The notes beneath the pieces were generated by a model. It was given only the letters and a program-made list of their open reading frames with translations, made no database searches and had not been told where the DNA came from. Positions 21,516-26,779 of a stretch of 50,463 nucleotides of DNA are shown in pieces; position 1 is the stretch's first letter; each line of letters begins with the position of its first letter. A program made the translations under genes and the position numbers. The stretch lies in contig CAZTVN010000001.1 of NCBI GenBank assembly GCA_964617145.1, positions 1 to 50,463 on the forward strand, given 5' to 3'. Source of the stretch: an uncultured Candidatus Peribacteria bacterium (lineage in GTDB: Bacteria; Patescibacteriota; Gracilibacteria; UBA1369; JACRIC01).

Positions 21516-22361
21516 ATGTCCGATCAAATCCCTCAAACATTTACGATTAAAAAAATTATTCAAGAGAATGCTGCGGTCAAAACTTACATCTTTGATCGAT
21601 CTGTTTGCGGGAAACCCGGACAGTTTGTGAATGTTTGGATTCCTCGGATGGACGAGAAGCCTATGAGTATTGCTTATGATGATTCCAAATCTCTTTCTCT
21701 TACTATTTGTGAGGTTGGTTCGTTTTCTCGTGCTATAGCTTCGAAAAAGGTTGGTGATAAGCTTGGTATACGTGGTCCTTATGGAAAACCTTTTCATTGG
21801 CAAAAAAAACAACATCTTATTATGGTAGCAGGTGGTTATGGTGCGGCGCCTTTGTTTTTTGCATCGAAAATGGCCATTCAAGATGGCTGTACAATAGATT
21901 TTATTCTTGGAGCTCGGACGAAAAATCATCTTCTTTATCTTAAAAGATTAGGGCTTGTCAAAGGGCTAAAACTGCATATTTCAACGGACGATGGAAGTTG
22001 TGGGCATAAAGGATATAATATCGATATTTTAACGAAAATTTTAGGTGAAACCCGAATGAAAACGTTGCAATTACCCGGTGCTCATTTTTTGAAGAAAAAA
22101 GCTGACTGGGTTTTTACTTGCGGTCCGGAAATGATGATGAAGCGAGTCTCTGATATTTGTTTTGAGAAAAATATTAAAGCTCAGGTGAGCGTCGAACGTT
22201 ACATGAAGTGCGGTTTTGGTATTTGTGGGCAGTGTTGCGTTGATGAATCAGGAATGCCTGTGTGTATTGAAGGTCCTGTTATGGATAATGATACAGCCCG
22301 AATGATCGAAGAATTTGGGAAATATCATCGCGACAGTGAGGGGAGGAAGGTTTATTTTTAG
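21516..22361 (+). CDS. pyrK: dihydroorotate dehydrogenase electron-transfer subunit
   Basis: 281 aa. FAD/NAD-binding fold (..IMVAGGYGAAPL..) and C-terminal 2Fe-2S motif CGFGICGQCCV...PVCIEGP. Confidence 0.9.
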   Translation: MSDQIPQTFTIKKIIQENAAVKTYIFDRSVCGKPGQFVNVWIPRMDEKPMSIAYDDSKSLSLTICEVGSFSRAIASKKVGDKLGIRGPYGKPFHWQKKQHLIMVAGGYGAAPLFFASKMAIQDGCTIDFILGARTKNHLLYLKRLGLVKGLKLHISTDDGSCGHKGYNIDILTKILGETRMKTLQLPGAHFLKKKADWVFTCGPEMMMKRVSDICFEKNIKAQVSVERYMKCGFGICGQCCVDESGMPVCIEGPVMDNDTARMIEEFGKYHRDSEGRKVYF

Positions 22362-22396
22362 AGCGTGGGGTACAATTTTTATTTCAAGAAGCTTCT

Positions 22397-22671
22397 TAGG
22401 GCCTGTGCACACAAAGTTTTTACAGATGGAAGAGACATATTTTGTTCAGTTCAAGAAACGACGACGAAGGTGTGCCCAAAGGCACATCGAGGAGGAGTAA
22501 CGCAGAAATGGGCAAAATATGTCTCTTCCCTTCGGGTTGAACAGGAACCTGTCAGGTCTTCTTTGTTGCTCGTCGCTTGTGGAGCGCAATGGCGAAACAG
22601 CGCTCCTCGCGCCGCGAATCCGACCACGTTCCTGTTCAACCATCGCAAAAACTTTGTGTGCACAGGCCCTA
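22397..22671 (+). ncRNA. unclassified, highly structured 275-nt GC-enriched element (candidate novel ncRNA; alternative: TA-flanked MITE)
   Basis: Three nested perfect helices close a three-way junction: 22397-22421/22647-22671 (25 bp), 22428-22444/22513-22529 (17 bp) and 22535-22548/22628-22641 (14 bp). Two inner hairpins sit at 22471-22486 and 22581-22606. U-G extensions of P2 pair only in the plus sense. Strand and RNA status are unproven. Confidence 0.45.
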
Positions 22672-22682
22672 GGAGAGAATTT

Positions 22683-25061
22683 TTAATTCGTCAGTTTCCG
22701 AAAGATAAAATTTTCGTTTTCGACCTGACAGGTTATTTGATCTCCTTCTTTTAGTTGTTTACGAAGAAGCATTTTTGCCAAAGGAGTATCGATTTCTTTT
22801 TGAATCACTAAACGGGCTGGCCTTGCTCCAAAAACTGGATCATAGCCGAGTTCCGCAAGTTTTTTTCGCGCTGAGTCCATTAAAATAAAACTGATATTTT
22901 GTTCTTCCAGCGATTCAACGGTATCTCGAATCAAGAGATTTATAATGCTTTCAATATTTTCCTTGGTGAGAAAATCGAAAAGAATGATATCATCAAATCG
23001 ATTGATAAGTTCTGGCTTAAGGAGCGTACGGAGTTCTTTAATGAGAGTGTTTTTTTGTTCACGTTCATTGAGTGATTTTATTTGAGCAAAATCGATGGTT
23101 TGTCCTCCAAGATTGGATGAACAAATGATGATAGTATTTTCAAAATTCACTTTTTGTCCTTTGGCATCGGTAAGATGTCCTTCGTCAAGCATTTGAAGAA
23201 GCAAATTAAATATTTCTGGATGCGCTTTTTCGATTTCGTCAAAGAGAATGACGCTGTATGGCCTTCGTCTGATTATTTCAGTAAGTTGGCCTCCTTCTTC
23301 GTAACCGATATACCCTGGAGGAGCACCGATGAGTCTCGCGCTTGTATGTTTTTCACTCAATTCGCTCATGTCAAAGCGAACGAGAGCATCAAGCGTTCCA
23401 AAAAGGTATTCTGTGAGCCTTTCCGCGAGTTCTGTTTTTCCTACTCCCGTTGGCCCCATAAAAATAAAGGATCCGATGGGTTTTGATTTTTTCTTCATCC
23501 CTGTTTGGTTTCGGATAATGGCTTCAGATACGATTTTTATTGCTTTGTTTTGGCCGACAATATTTTGAGACAATATTTCTTCAATGTGCAATAGGCGTTC
23601 TCCTTCGTTTCCTTGAATATGAGGCTTCGGTATTCCTGTCATCTTTGAGACGATTTCTTCTACGATTTCTCGGGTTAAGATTTTTTCGCGTCGTTTCTCT
23701 TTTTCTTTTAAACTTTTTTCTAGAGAGAGTATTTTTGCTTCGATATGTCTGGCTTTATAGCTCAATTTGTTTGCCAGAGGAATATTTTTGTTCATCGTAG
23801 CTTTTTCTTTTCTTTCTATGATGTCAGAGAAAAGAAATTTTTGCGCTTCCTTTTGTCCTGAAAGAGAAAATTCTGGAATATTCATGGCTGTACAGGCTTC
23901 ATCAAGCAGATCAATGGCTTTATCTGGCAAGAGACGATGTACGATATAGCGCTGACTTAAGCGTAAAATATCTTCCAAAATTTCGTCAGGAATGAGGATT
24001 TTGTGATAATTTTCAAACTTTTTTTTAATTCCTTTCAAAATAATCAAACAGTTTTCTTCTGATGGTTCTTCGATATAAACCGGCTGAAATCGTCTTTCGA
24101 GCGCAGCATCTTTTTCAAAATGTTTTCTATACTCGCTTTCCGTTGTTGCGCCTATGCATTGGATTTCTCCACGAGCAAGAGCTGGTTTTAAGATGTTTGC
24201 CGCTTCGGAATTATCTTCTTTTTGCACCAATGAATGGATTTCATCAAAAAATATGATAATTTTTCCATCGGATTTTTTTACTTCCTCGAGAATATTTTTC
24301 AATCTTTCTTCAAATTCTCCTTTTAAGCTCGCTCCTGCAATTATGGAATGGATACTCAGTTCGATGATACGTTTATTTTTGAGATTTTCTGGCACTTTGT
24401 CCTTGGCAATCATATAGGCAATTCCTTCAACAATGCCTGTTTTTCCTACTCCCGGGCCGCCGAAAAGCACTGGATTGTTTTTTGTTTTTCTTGAAAGAAT
24501 TTGAATGATTCTCTCGGTTTCCTCAAAACGATCAATGATGGGATCAAGTTTTCCATCGATTGCTTTTTGAGTCAGATCGTCTCCGTATTGATCGAGAAAT
24601 GTTGTGATTTCGGTTTTTTGTCTTTTTTTTGATTTTTCGTAATAACCGTATATTTTTTCGTAGGAGAGATTAAAATTTTTCAAGGCTTCCTGAATACGCT
24701 TTGATGGATCTTTGGTTAAAATCATGAAAAGATGTATGGATTTTACGCTTTTATCATTGAATGTTTCGACGATTTTTTTGGCTTCTTCCAAAGTTTTTTT
24801 AAGTTCCGCGTCGAATCCAATGTTTTTTATTTTTGTGTCATTTACATCCGTTGTCTCTCTCCGTATTTTTGTTAAGCTCTGAATAAATTCTTCTTTTGAT
24901 ATTTTGAACTCTTTAAACATTTCATCTATTTCTTCGTCATTTTGTTTTAGAATTGCGAGAAAAACGTGTTCTTTTTTTACGTATGACGCGTTTTCTTTGA
25001 GAGCTTCTATTGAGGCAATTTGTAAGATGTTTTCGATTTGTGAAGAGTAGGAAGTTGGCAT
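22683..25061 (-). CDS. Clp/Hsp100 AAA+ chaperone (ClpB/ClpC family, two NBDs)
   Basis: 792 aa. Clp_N-like N-terminus, NBD1 GGPGVGKTG..IIFFDEIH, NBD2 GPTGVGKTE..ILFDEIEKAH. The linker between the NBDs is about 110 aa. Confidence 0.93.
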   Translation of the reverse strand: MPTSYSSQIENILQIASIEALKENASYVKKEHVFLAILKQNDEEIDEMFKEFKISKEEFIQSLTKIRRETTDVNDTKIKNIGFDAELKKTLEEAKKIVETFNDKSVKSIHLFMILTKDPSKRIQEALKNFNLSYEKIYGYYEKSKKRQKTEITTFLDQYGDDLTQKAIDGKLDPIIDRFEETERIIQILSRKTKNNPVLFGGPGVGKTGIVEGIAYMIAKDKVPENLKNKRIIELSIHSIIAGASLKGEFEERLKNILEEVKKSDGKIIIFFDEIHSLVQKEDNSEAANILKPALARGEIQCIGATTESEYRKHFEKDAALERRFQPVYIEEPSEENCLIILKGIKKKFENYHKILIPDEILEDILRLSQRYIVHRLLPDKAIDLLDEACTAMNIPEFSLSGQKEAQKFLFSDIIERKEKATMNKNIPLANKLSYKARHIEAKILSLEKSLKEKEKRREKILTREIVEEIVSKMTGIPKPHIQGNEGERLLHIEEILSQNIVGQNKAIKIVSEAIIRNQTGMKKKSKPIGSFIFMGPTGVGKTELAERLTEYLFGTLDALVRFDMSELSEKHTSARLIGAPPGYIGYEEGGQLTEIIRRRPYSVILFDEIEKAHPEIFNLLLQMLDEGHLTDAKGQKVNFENTIIICSSNLGGQTIDFAQIKSLNEREQKNTLIKELRTLLKPELINRFDDIILFDFLTKENIESIINLLIRDTVESLEEQNISFILMDSARKKLAELGYDPVFGARPARLVIQKEIDTPLAKMLLRKQLKEGDQITCQVENENFIFRKLTN

Positions 25062-25065
25062 AGGT

Positions 25066-26481
25066 TTAAGCTTCTAGGGTAAGAGCGGTTTCGATTTTTC
25101 TTAATGTGCTTATATAGCTGTTTTGAGCGCGAGGGATTCTGATTTCTTCACTTAAAAGATCTTTTTGAGTGATAATTTGAGATCCTTGTTGTGATTCCCC
25201 AACAAGTTCTAGTTGAGAGATGGTTTCAGCCGGCATGTTTGCGAAAATTTCTTCTAAAGTCGCGATGGCGCTCATACTTTCTGCGATTTCTTCTTTTTGA
25301 GGTTTTTGTTCTTCTGGCGCAAACATTTTTCTTCCCACTACGTCGCGTACTTTTGTTAATAGATTTACTACGATATTGCCTGAAAGTTCTTCGATATCGT
25401 CTGGAATGTTTTCTGCTGATTCTCCTGAAATAGCAGATGTTCTTTCGATTGATGAGGGTTCTGCTAAACCATGTTTTTCAGAACCCTCTGCTGTTTTTCC
25501 TTCCTCAACACTTTCAACGAGCGATGTCAAATATTGAAAGTTGTTTCTGATAGCAATGGTTACTGGTCGCTCTATAGCTTGATTTTGATCTGTTGTTTGC
25601 GTTTCTTCTTGAATTGTTTCGTGCGTGCTGTTGGCGATAGCTTGAATGAAAGGTTTTCGTGTTTCTTCTCTTTCTAGCCCTTCATATATTTTCGCGCTAT
25701 CTCCTCTTTTTTCTTGTTCTTCGTCAATTTTTGCACGGACTACTGTTTCGATTCCCTTTGGTATTTCTCTTACGATCCATCCGTGGAAAATAAAGGCTTG
25801 TAAGGCAGGATCTTGTCCTTTTATGGCCCAATGCCCTTGAAAATTTTTTTGATCAGATTTGGCTGGGATCCAATATAGGATAAGTTTTTCGGCACCTTGA
25901 GGTGAAATCGCTTCATATATTTTGGGTTTTTCTTCTTCATCTGCTTTATCGAAAAGAGGCAGTCCTTCTAATGCTCTTTGTTCCTGTAGCCCTTCGTAAT
26001 CCAGTGAACCGTCTGTTTTTTTATAATTGATCATTGCTGGCGCTTCTAAATTTCCAAAAAATGGATTTTTTACCTTTTCGTTTAGGACGGAGAGATTTCT
26101 ATCCGTCAAGTTGACGAGATAGGTTACTGCCAGACGTTTTTTTTCTTTTATGCTATCTTCGGCATTTTCTCTTTTTAAGAAAAAATCTTTCAGTCTTTTT
26201 ACTAGAGCCTTGCTTGCTTCGGCTTGATTTTGCGTTAGTGCCTCTTGAAGTGCTCGGATATTGTCTTCTACGCCTCTCGTAAGATCTTCTGGAAGGTTTT
26301 TGAAAGTTGTTCCTATTTCATGAAGCGTTGTGTCAACGAAAGATCCTGTTGTTTCTAGGTCGTGTCCGAGATTTTCAAGTTCTAGAAGAGTGTTTTTAAG
26401 GAAGCCTTCTCGCAGACTTTCTCCAGATGGTTCTCTTTCAAGGCCTGATACTTCTTTATTTTGTTTCGTTGATACCGTCAT
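25066..26481 (-). CDS. hypothetical acidic protein (no recognisable domain)
   Basis: 471-aa ORF, Glu-rich, with no TM segment or motif I recognise. Ends 4 nt before the Clp ATPase start. Coding status rests on its length and operon position. Confidence 0.6.
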   Translation of the reverse strand: MTVSTKQNKEVSGLEREPSGESLREGFLKNTLLELENLGHDLETTGSFVDTTLHEIGTTFKNLPEDLTRGVEDNIRALQEALTQNQAEASKALVKRLKDFFLKRENAEDSIKEKKRLAVTYLVNLTDRNLSVLNEKVKNPFFGNLEAPAMINYKKTDGSLDYEGLQEQRALEGLPLFDKADEEEKPKIYEAISPQGAEKLILYWIPAKSDQKNFQGHWAIKGQDPALQAFIFHGWIVREIPKGIETVVRAKIDEEQEKRGDSAKIYEGLEREETRKPFIQAIANSTHETIQEETQTTDQNQAIERPVTIAIRNNFQYLTSLVESVEEGKTAEGSEKHGLAEPSSIERTSAISGESAENIPDDIEELSGNIVVNLLTKVRDVVGRKMFAPEEQKPQKEEIAESMSAIATLEEIFANMPAETISQLELVGESQQGSQIITQKDLLSEEIRIPRAQNSYISTLRKIETALTLEA

Positions 26482-26779
26482 TGATTGTGGTAAAAAGATT
26501 TTTGAGTATTTTTTTTTCTTCTCTGCCTGATTCTTGCTCGAGTTTTTGAAACATGGGCCGTATTTTTTCTTTTTGAATATTATTTATATCCAGAAGAAAT
26601 TTTTTATTTATTTTTATGAGTTGACTCATCCCTTCTGCAATGATTTTTTTGAGTTCTTCGTATTGTTTTTGATTTAATGTTGGAAATACTTCATCGAACG
26701 TCTCTAAAATTTCTTTTGGGAGATTTTGGATATTTTTTAGAAGTTCTAGAAGAGCACGTTTTTCTTCTTCCGATGGCAT
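26456..26779 (-). CDS. hypothetical small helical protein
   Basis: 107-aa ORF rich in Lys/Glu/Leu. Its 3' end overlaps the start of the 471-aa ORF by 26 nt. A candidate promoter lies about 60 nt upstream. Confidence 0.5.
   Translation of the reverse strand: MPSEEEKRALLELLKNIQNLPKEILETFDEVFPTLNQKQYEELKKIIAEGMSQLIKINKKFLLDINNIQKEKIRPMFQKLEQESGREEKKILKNLFTTINDGINETK

Follow-up and report, generated by a model that had tools for sequence, protein, structure and literature searches.

A window of 50,463 nucleotides (nt) from an uncultured Candidatus Peribacteria bacterium contains, between the convergent genes for a pyrK-like dihydroorotate dehydrogenase electron-transfer subunit and a Clp ATPase, a 275-nt block at positions 22397-22671, which an earlier note had described from the letters alone as either an unclassified structured RNA or a TA-flanked MITE (a miniature transposable element with inverted repeats). 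We find that this block is a mobile element with terminal inverted repeats (TIRs), a duplicated target site and a conserved three-way-junction fold. We consider it probable that it represents a new family of non-autonomous, cut-and-paste MITEs whose fold acts in cis at the RNA level. The element is small and non-coding and occurs at unrelated loci, almost certainly twice within one genome; we file it as a MITE and assign it to no superfamily.

Copies of the element were sought by comparing the translation of the frame that is open through the whole element with predicted proteins, in order to catch spurious gene calls. The family so recovered has seven full-length members (271-276 nt), each at a locus unrelated to the others, on Peregrinibacteria or groundwater contigs. 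One is the window copy, the only one in the window, and the others are listed in Table 1; together with a short relative on contig L003 they make up the eight insertions counted below. Two further open reading frame (ORF) hits, P0127 and P0129, look like additional insertions. The GC content of the element stays between 0.46 and 0.51 irrespective of a host GC of 0.35 to 0.57, and its excess over the surroundings, remarked upon earlier, amounts in the window to 0.51 versus 0.37. The copy on contig L050 differs from that in the window at only 4 of 275 positions (98.5% identity), with the similarity breaking off precisely at tTA (left) and TAg (right). Moreover, the pyrK protein of the window is 100% identical to NCBI MBI2453404.1 from a Candidatus Peregrinibacteria metagenome-assembled genome (MAG), and the L050 protein MBI2453287.1 lies only 117 accessions away, the two proteins of the other MAG falling in a different block. 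Because these accessions fall in one block, the window and L050 copies almost certainly reside in one genome, which would thus hold at least two near-identical copies, and their 98.5% identity points to recent activity of the element there.

Comparison of the orthologous spacer led to the same picture. The closest relatives, with 61-65% pyrK identity, retain the convergent pyrK/clp pair without the element between the two genes, the spacers measuring 20 nt on L009 (GCA_016188705.1) and 80 nt on L011 (GCA_016235915.1), so that the 321-nt spacer of the window is explained by the insertion of about 273 nt. The first of these empty spacers and the L048 copy belong to the same genome. The left junction was also found in an independent Logan assembly (contig L001, SRR12113385), and the element is therefore not an assembly artefact. 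In the window the insertion borders on a small dyad symmetry: a perfect palindrome of 12 nt (AAGAAGCTTCTT, 22386-22397) has the T of the left TA as its last base. The Logan contig, which carries pyrD and pyrK, stops at window position 22425, 4 nt beyond the left terminal repeat; exact repeats of at least 31 nt do not account for this end, the assembler's 31-mers exceeding the repeats, and the break may come from a second, near-identical copy in the same sample or from low coverage.

The ends of the element are well defined. TIRs of 23-25 bp, perfect or with one mismatch, are present in all seven full-length copies and in L003, they begin with GGGCC or GGAGC, and their two arms vary together among the copies, with double changes at 9 pairs. 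Seven of the eight insertions are flanked by TA on both sides and the eighth, L036, by AA; since AA..AA is a direct and not an inverted repeat, the TA belongs to the duplicated target, not to the end of the terminal helix. A 2-bp direct repeat fits all copies, while a 3-bp duplication fits none and a 4-bp YTAR duplication only two of seven. At all seven TA-flanked insertions a pyrimidine precedes the left TA and a purine follows the right one, which suggests a target site of the form Y-TA-R. At several sites the TA used is that of a stop codon: in L050 the TA and the first G of the element restore the upstream TAG, in L036 the element adjoins a TAA, and in L038 the upstream ORF now terminates within the repeat. 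Thus, the earlier suggestion of a TA-flanked MITE with TIRs of about 23 bp holds, given the unrelated loci, the TA..TA flanks, the 98.5% identical second copy and the empty spacer in relatives.

Having the ends in place, we turn to the interior. Reading of the sequence together with a repeat finder confirmed the three perfect helices P1, P2 and P3 reported earlier, including their coordinates, the extension of P2 by U-G, U-G, C-G and A-U pairs and the 6-, 5- and 5-nt joints; if one mismatch is allowed, the repeat finder extends the P1 inverted repeat to 28 nt. Both hairpins (22471-22486 and 22581-22606) were likewise present, as were the complementary hexamers CGACGA (22462-22467) and TCGTCG (22570-22575) of the putative loop-loop contact, both of which are invariant in all copies. 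In joint J1/2, GAU can pair with AUC of joint J3/1 (22642-22644), and this short helix 2 (columns 29-31/249-251) is paired in five of six copies. The predicted minimum free energy (MFE) is -142.6 kcal/mol for the plus-strand RNA and -137.2 kcal/mol for the minus strand (z -11.7 and -11.1); dinucleotide shuffles of the plus strand average -79.4 +/- 5.4, and 0/200 reach its value.

The conservation of this fold was examined in six copies of 78-90% pairwise identity (alignment A4) with RNAalifold, using column shuffles and slid pairing partners as controls. RNAalifold returned the same three-way junction. Paired cells made up 97.8%; column shuffles gave 90.6%, and sliding the partners by 1-3 columns lowered the share to 38-50%. 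Double compensatory changes occurred at 25 of 99 pairs, compared with 8.5 +/- 2.2 in shuffles (0/500) and 2-3 in slid controls. Nine of these pairs lie in P1, where co-variation is also expected from recognition by one transposase; no such explanation applies to the other 16, which are spread over the P2 stem (helix 3; 3 of 24 pairs, 99.3% paired), the P2 tip (helix 5; 3 of 8 pairs), the P3 stem (helix 6; 8 of 22 pairs) and the P3 tip (helix 8; 2 pairs). Invariant columns, by contrast, are concentrated in the internal loops of P2 and P3 (74-84%; 79-84% in the P2 loop, with 62% in the 3' strand of the P3 loop) as compared with the stems (44-62%), and the stem boundaries and the 5-6-nt joints are unchanged among copies. 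The pattern is one in which loops matter by sequence and stems by pairing, and the covariation of stems and tips together with the sequence conservation of the loops indicates selection on the fold in its single-stranded form. The earlier note had expected a MITE to show TA-flanked copies without covariation; the copies were found at unrelated loci with their TA, but covariation is abundant and the fold conserved. In the lineage formed by the window and L050 the P3 tip is rearranged to GGAGCGC/GCGCUCC, whereas the other copies have GUG[G/U]AGC-loop-GCU[C/A]CAC. By cells, the alignment contains 564 Watson-Crick, 17 G-U and 4 A-C combinations. The case for a plus-sense transcript, which the U-G pairs had been taken to favour weakly, is indeed weak: the 17:4 ratio of G-U to A-C cells falls to 7:3 when pairs are counted, the cell count is dominated by one U-G pair conserved in all six copies (its neighbour being U-G or U-A), and the MFE is equal on both strands. 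Two candidate features were rejected: a second contact, CGAGGAG/CUCCUCG, seen by eye in alignment A4, has A-C in L048 and L049 and G-U in L038, and a hammerhead-type core in the joints is absent by inspection and by Rfam.

Table 1. Position of the element, its parts, the flanking genes and the other copies. Positions refer to the window unless a contig is named.
Feature	Position	Strand	Details
Left TA	22397..22398	.	one copy of the 2-bp target-site duplication
Helix P1	22397-22421/22647-22671		25 bp, all Watson-Crick
Left TIR GGGCCTGTGCACACAAAGTTTTT (5' arm of P1)	22399..22421	+	perfect complement of 22647-22669
Joint J1/2 ACAGAT	22422..22427	+	6 nt
Arm P2	22428..22529	+	lower stem, internal loop, tip hairpin
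Helix P2	22428-22444/22513-22529		17 bp, extended by U-G, U-G, C-G and A-U pairs
P2 lower stem	22428-22448/22509-22529	+
P2 internal loop	22449-22468 and 22489-22508	+	large, sequence-conserved; ACGACGACGA / CGAGGAGGAGTRACGCAGAAATGG
P2 tip hairpin	22469-22488	+
Joint J2/3 CTTCG	22530..22534	+	5 nt; CTACG in two copies (alignment A4)
Arm P3	22535..22641	+	lower stem, conserved interior, tip hairpin
Helix P3	22535-22548/22628-22641		14 bp; 17 nt at 94%
P3 lower stem	22535-22551/22625-22641	+
P3 conserved interior	within 22535..22641	+	large internal loop; TTGTTGCTCGTCGCTTGTG / CTCCTCGCGCC
P3 tip hairpin	22581-22606	+	form specific to the window lineage
Joint J3/1 ATCGC	22642..22646	+	5 nt; 4/5 columns invariant
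Right TIR (3' arm of P1)	22647..22669	-
Right TA	22670..22671	.	other copy of the 2-bp duplication
pyrK-like dihydroorotate dehydrogenase electron-transfer subunit	21516..22361	+	Pfam PF10418/PF00175; stop codon 35 nt before left TA
ClpB/ClpC-type AAA+ ATPase	22683..25061	-	convergent; Pfam AAA_2, AAA_lid_9, ClpB_D2-small, Clp_N; stop codon 11 nt past right TA
Copy	L035:524-794
Copy	L036:2972-3244		between Mur-ligase (murC-like) gene and truB, tight co-directional operon; same insertion in L037
Copy	L038:782-1054
Copy	L048:4972-5243		GCA_016188705.1; antisense to both neighbours
Copy	L049:845-1120		after tRNA-Cys and tRNA-Leu
Copy	L050:5012-5286		GCA_016188725.1; between FemAB-like and family-4 glycosyltransferase (GT4) genes, tight co-directional operon
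Short relative	L003:6429-6579		151 nt; same TA+18-nt termini, inverted, at both ends; 111-nt interior

Several lines of evidence bear on what the fold is for. In six of the seven copies the gene upstream has the same orientation and ends 0-36 nt before the element, and two copies (L036 and L050) lie inside tight operons and should for that reason be transcribed in the sense of the upstream gene. It is these positions at gene ends and in operons, together with the sequence-conserved loops, that lead us to favour a role at the RNA level. We propose that the element would be mobilised in trans by a DDE transposase with a 2-bp stagger at TA, encoded elsewhere than among the annotated genes of the window, and that in this way it inserted into the short convergent pyrK/clp spacer, with a second copy landing between two cell-envelope genes. 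Wherever it lands, the element would be co-transcribed with the host operon, and its RNA fold could then act in cis as a compact module that either resists nucleases or is targeted by them. By analogy with what has been proposed for Correia/NEMIS, ERIC and RUP, such a module might render insertions at gene ends tolerable or even useful.

The main alternative, which retains the MITE, assigns the fold to transposition itself: as single-stranded DNA or as a cruciform, the junction would bring both TA ends together at the base of P1 and present them to the transposase or to a junction-resolving enzyme, and selection would act on mobility. Both strands do fold equally well, as is needed for cruciform extrusion, the fold of single-stranded DNA is extreme too (-80.9 kcal/mol, z -10.8), and the stems are perfect rather than G-U-rich. 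Furthermore, the unrelated interior of L003 again folds, between the same termini, as nested near-perfect helices (z -11.5), which suggests that elements with termini of this group are required to fold. However, known DDE cut-and-paste transposases of TA-duplicating families work on duplex ends and need no internal structure, and the most conserved parts of the element are unpaired loops far from these ends, which a purely geometric role leaves unexplained. In addition, the U-G pair found in all six copies and the adjacent U-G/U-A pair become A-C mismatches on the opposite strand. A fold that serves transposition is thus possible, but in our view rather unlikely.

Alternatively, the palindromes may have no function, if one arm is copied onto the other during replication, by intrastrand template switching, quasipalindrome correction or a similar mutational process, in a way that mimics compensation. 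This would fit the perfection of the helices in all copies (in the window 25/25, 17/17 and 14/14), changes that are mostly full Watson-Crick swaps with few G-U intermediates, and the symmetry of the two strands. Without selection, however, the loops should diverge at least as much as the stems, whereas they are the more invariant of the two; the stem boundaries and joints have stayed constant at 78-90% identity; and the extension of palindromes into the loops that such a process should bring about is not seen. We consider a purely mutational origin of the pattern improbable.

A structured non-coding RNA encoded by a dedicated gene fixed in the chromosome, or an intrinsic terminator acting in both directions on the pyrK and clp operons, would agree with the strong covarying fold, with the conserved loops and with the location of the window copy between convergent genes, the stops of which (22361 and 22683) are as first described. 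Yet the context is not conserved, since the seven copies occupy seven unrelated loci with a target duplication and the orthologous spacer of relatives is without the element; a dedicated RNA gene, as the earlier note had it, gives way to a mobile element without fixed genomic context. Neither promoter-like nor terminator-like sites were found on either strand of 22200-22900, and no stem is followed by a T-run, which together with the copies inside the tight co-directional murC-like/truB and FemAB-like/GT4 operons, where termination would be harmful, speaks against the proposed terminator. No known RNA family matched, be it a riboswitch, a ribozyme, tmRNA, 6S, SRP, RNase P, OLE, ROOL, GOLLD, HEARO or another: with the E-value limit at 10, the Rfam 15 covariance models returned for the window region nothing but noise from miRNA and snoRNA families, well under the gathering scores, and for the other seven loci, at E<=0.1, only two tRNAs. 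Either form of this explanation is very unlikely. Finally, a translated palindromic insert or small-protein module like the Rickettsia palindromic elements, suggested by a frame that is open over 91 codons (22398-22670) in the window copy and L050 and by an NCBI glycosyltransferase with a 99-residue extension made of the element, can hardly be entertained, as the frame shifts between copies by indels and meets stops in L036, L038 and L049, variable sites are spread over the codon positions as 26/32/33 without third-position bias, and the element ORFs have no Pfam hit; the three ORFs crossing the element are indeed, as supposed, by-products without a coding signal.

Returning to the MITE with a role of its RNA in cis, several observations count against this reading. 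The G-U and A-C counts (17:4 cells, 7:3 pairs) and the equal MFE single out neither strand as the functional one. The nearest insertion-free genomes, at 61-65% identity in pyrK, are too distant for a base-exact empty site. The L048 copy lies antisense to both neighbours, and the orientation bias of six in seven is not significant (two-sided binomial p ~0.13). Bacterial MITEs are typically AT-rich and <200 bp long (PMC2229807), whereas the element is GC-rich and longer. Only about nine insertions are known, 1.84 billion representative proteins having given 6 ORF hits, and there may be no more than two copies per genome, far under classical MITE bursts. No transposase with matching ends was found among the annotated window genes or in L003. 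The Pfam-annotated genes of the window comprise ATP synthase, NADH dehydrogenase/Mrp-type subunits, pyrimidine synthesis enzymes, Clp and an rRNA methyltransferase, and no transposase is among them; the ORFs at 25066-26779 and 29853-50383 are not annotated or assigned, and that at 25066-26481 has no Pfam hit.

Bacterial MITEs that have TA ends and TIRs, form RNA stem-loops and give rise to ORF fusions have been reviewed (PMC2229807), and Correia/NEMIS of Neisseria, RUP of pneumococcus and ERIC/IRU of enterobacteria are among those that fold as RNA, with Correia, ERIC and RUP reported to act in cis on transcripts via their fold and RUP mobilised by IS630-Spn1 (PMC2229807 and work cited there). 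Like these, the element is non-coding and non-autonomous, has TIRs and a duplicated TA at both ends, inserts at gene ends and in operons, and gives rise to ORFs that annotation fuses to neighbours. It differs from them in that no sequence similarity was found, in its size (272 nt versus <200 nt), in being GC-rich versus AT-rich, in its low apparent copy number and in its host, a member of the candidate phyla radiation (CPR; Peregrinibacteria), for which our literature search found no MITE reports. Whereas their transcripts form long stems, the element branches at a three-way junction into two arms whose internal loops are conserved, instead of folding as a single long hairpin. REP/BIME sequences resemble the element as intergenic palindromes at gene ends with stems that keep their pairing via compensatory changes, but REPs are 20-40 nt long, have neither TIRs nor a target-site duplication and are mobilised by RAYT (IS200/IS605-like) enzymes, all of which sets them apart from the element.

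As to the transposase class, the element shares with IS630/Tc1-mariner (Stowaway-like) MITEs the 2-bp TA duplication and a TA within a YTAR/CTAG-like site. IS630 targets CTAG, and the IS630/Tc1-mariner superfamily usually has CAG-type ends, unlike the GGGCC/GGAGC of the element. No IS630-type transposase was found among the annotated window genes, nor were matching IS ends found, and BLAST of the terminus against plasmids gave no match. The TA duplication points to IS630/Tc1-mariner and the termini to the PIF/Harbinger-IS5 group. Of the latter, neither the 3-bp TWA duplication of PIF/Harbinger nor the 4-bp YTAR duplication of the IS5 group is what the copies display; IS5 subgroups with 2-3-bp duplications exist.

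The link to PIF/Harbinger comes from the silkworm. A full-text string search retrieved BmMITE-6, a Tourist-like element (PIF/Harbinger, related to IS5) and the one described member of that group with such an end; its TIR GGGCCTGTGCACACCACGTTTTTTAA (PMC2997013, Table 1) shares 22 of 26 positions with the window terminus, the first 14 among them. The two also agree in bulk properties and in the predicted folding energy of single-stranded DNA, BmMITE-6 having 270 bp, 52% AT and -81 kcal/mol and the window copy 271 bp, 49.5% AT and -80.9 kcal/mol, but a 3-bp TWA duplication is reported for BmMITE-6, in an insect host, versus 2 bp for the bacterial copies. BmMITE-6 may therefore be regarded as a lead to the relationships of the element, drawn from termini and bulk properties alone. 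An insect regulatory sequence in Appendix 1 of PMC11469670 contains TTATGGGCCTGTGCACGTTTG, which has the first 12 nt of the window terminus, and may be another insect Tourist-like end.

The same termini reach beyond the family in bacteria as well. The L003 relative came from an exact 18-nt terminus scan of metagenomes and belongs to a different organism with 57% GC; a gene with DRTGG/AAA_26 domains starts about 180 nt downstream of it, three U-G pairs occur in its second helix as read on the displayed strand, and no transposase was found in L003. Homology of its interior to that of the family, suspected by eye, was rejected, as local alignment scores equal those of shuffles, and L004-L006, from that metagenome scan, proved to be single-arm chance matches in coding sequence. 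An exact scan for the 18-nt terminus over one genome per species (GTDB) gave a single chance match, in Mangrovibacter, and the host genome is evidently not among the species-representative genomes scanned. In plasmid and phage collections BLAST matched neither the element nor its terminus, and a search of viral contigs with 16- and 14-mers of the terminus and three conserved interior motifs gave single chance matches or none. A bolder reading would combine these threads: a functional RNA or single-stranded DNA module carried on transposon ends, the two large, sequence-invariant internal loops of which would bind protein, dock with each other or catalyse, with termini or the whole element shared across domains, from the 57%-GC bacterium to the silkworm BmMITE-6. 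We regard this combination as doubtful; were it true, the three-way junction would define, for CPR bacteria, a new class of mobile structured RNA, and one MITE lineage would have spread horizontally between bacteria and an animal.

What the element offers more immediately is a MITE with apparently recent transposition in a tiny, gene-dense CPR genome, and an unusually clean case of a transposon interior that evolves as a functional RNA does, its stems covarying and its loops conserved. It makes the reason for the structure of bacterial MITEs testable, for RNA function in operons, a transposition requirement and a mutational by-product differ in their predictions. The near-identity to insect Tourist-like termini is a lead on either cross-domain spread or deep conservation of transposon ends. 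In practical terms, the element yields annotation errors. Several 'hypothetical proteins' of 62-151 residues (P0121-P0126) consist wholly of translated element, and the GT4 of L050 (L050:5001-6461, MBI2453287.1) is annotated with a false 99-residue N-terminal extension that is translated element; both are annotation artefacts.

Two minor observations concern the neighbourhood of the element. A 13-nt perfect inverted match (AACCTGTCAGGTC / GACCTGACAGGTT) connects 22546-22558 in the P3 arm with 22722-22734 in the 3' coding end of clp and is the sole match of at least 13 nt between the element and the rest of the window. This part of P3 varies in most other copies, the near-identical L050 keeping the same 13-mer, and the match is probably due to chance, though an antisense contact of the P3 arm with clp mRNA is conceivable. 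The second observation is another, unrelated MITE-like element of about 167 bp with perfect 19-bp terminal repeats (GGAACCTCTGAAAAACGTA...TACGTTTTTCAGAGGTTCC), which occurs in Peregrinibacteria relatives, is not in the window and lies at L048:5300-5466, about 55 nt downstream of the three-way-junction copy on that contig. In GCA_016235915.1 a solo terminus of this element (L011:1383-1399) immediately follows the pyrK stop, within the pyrK/clp spacer, which has therefore been struck by mobile DNA repeatedly.

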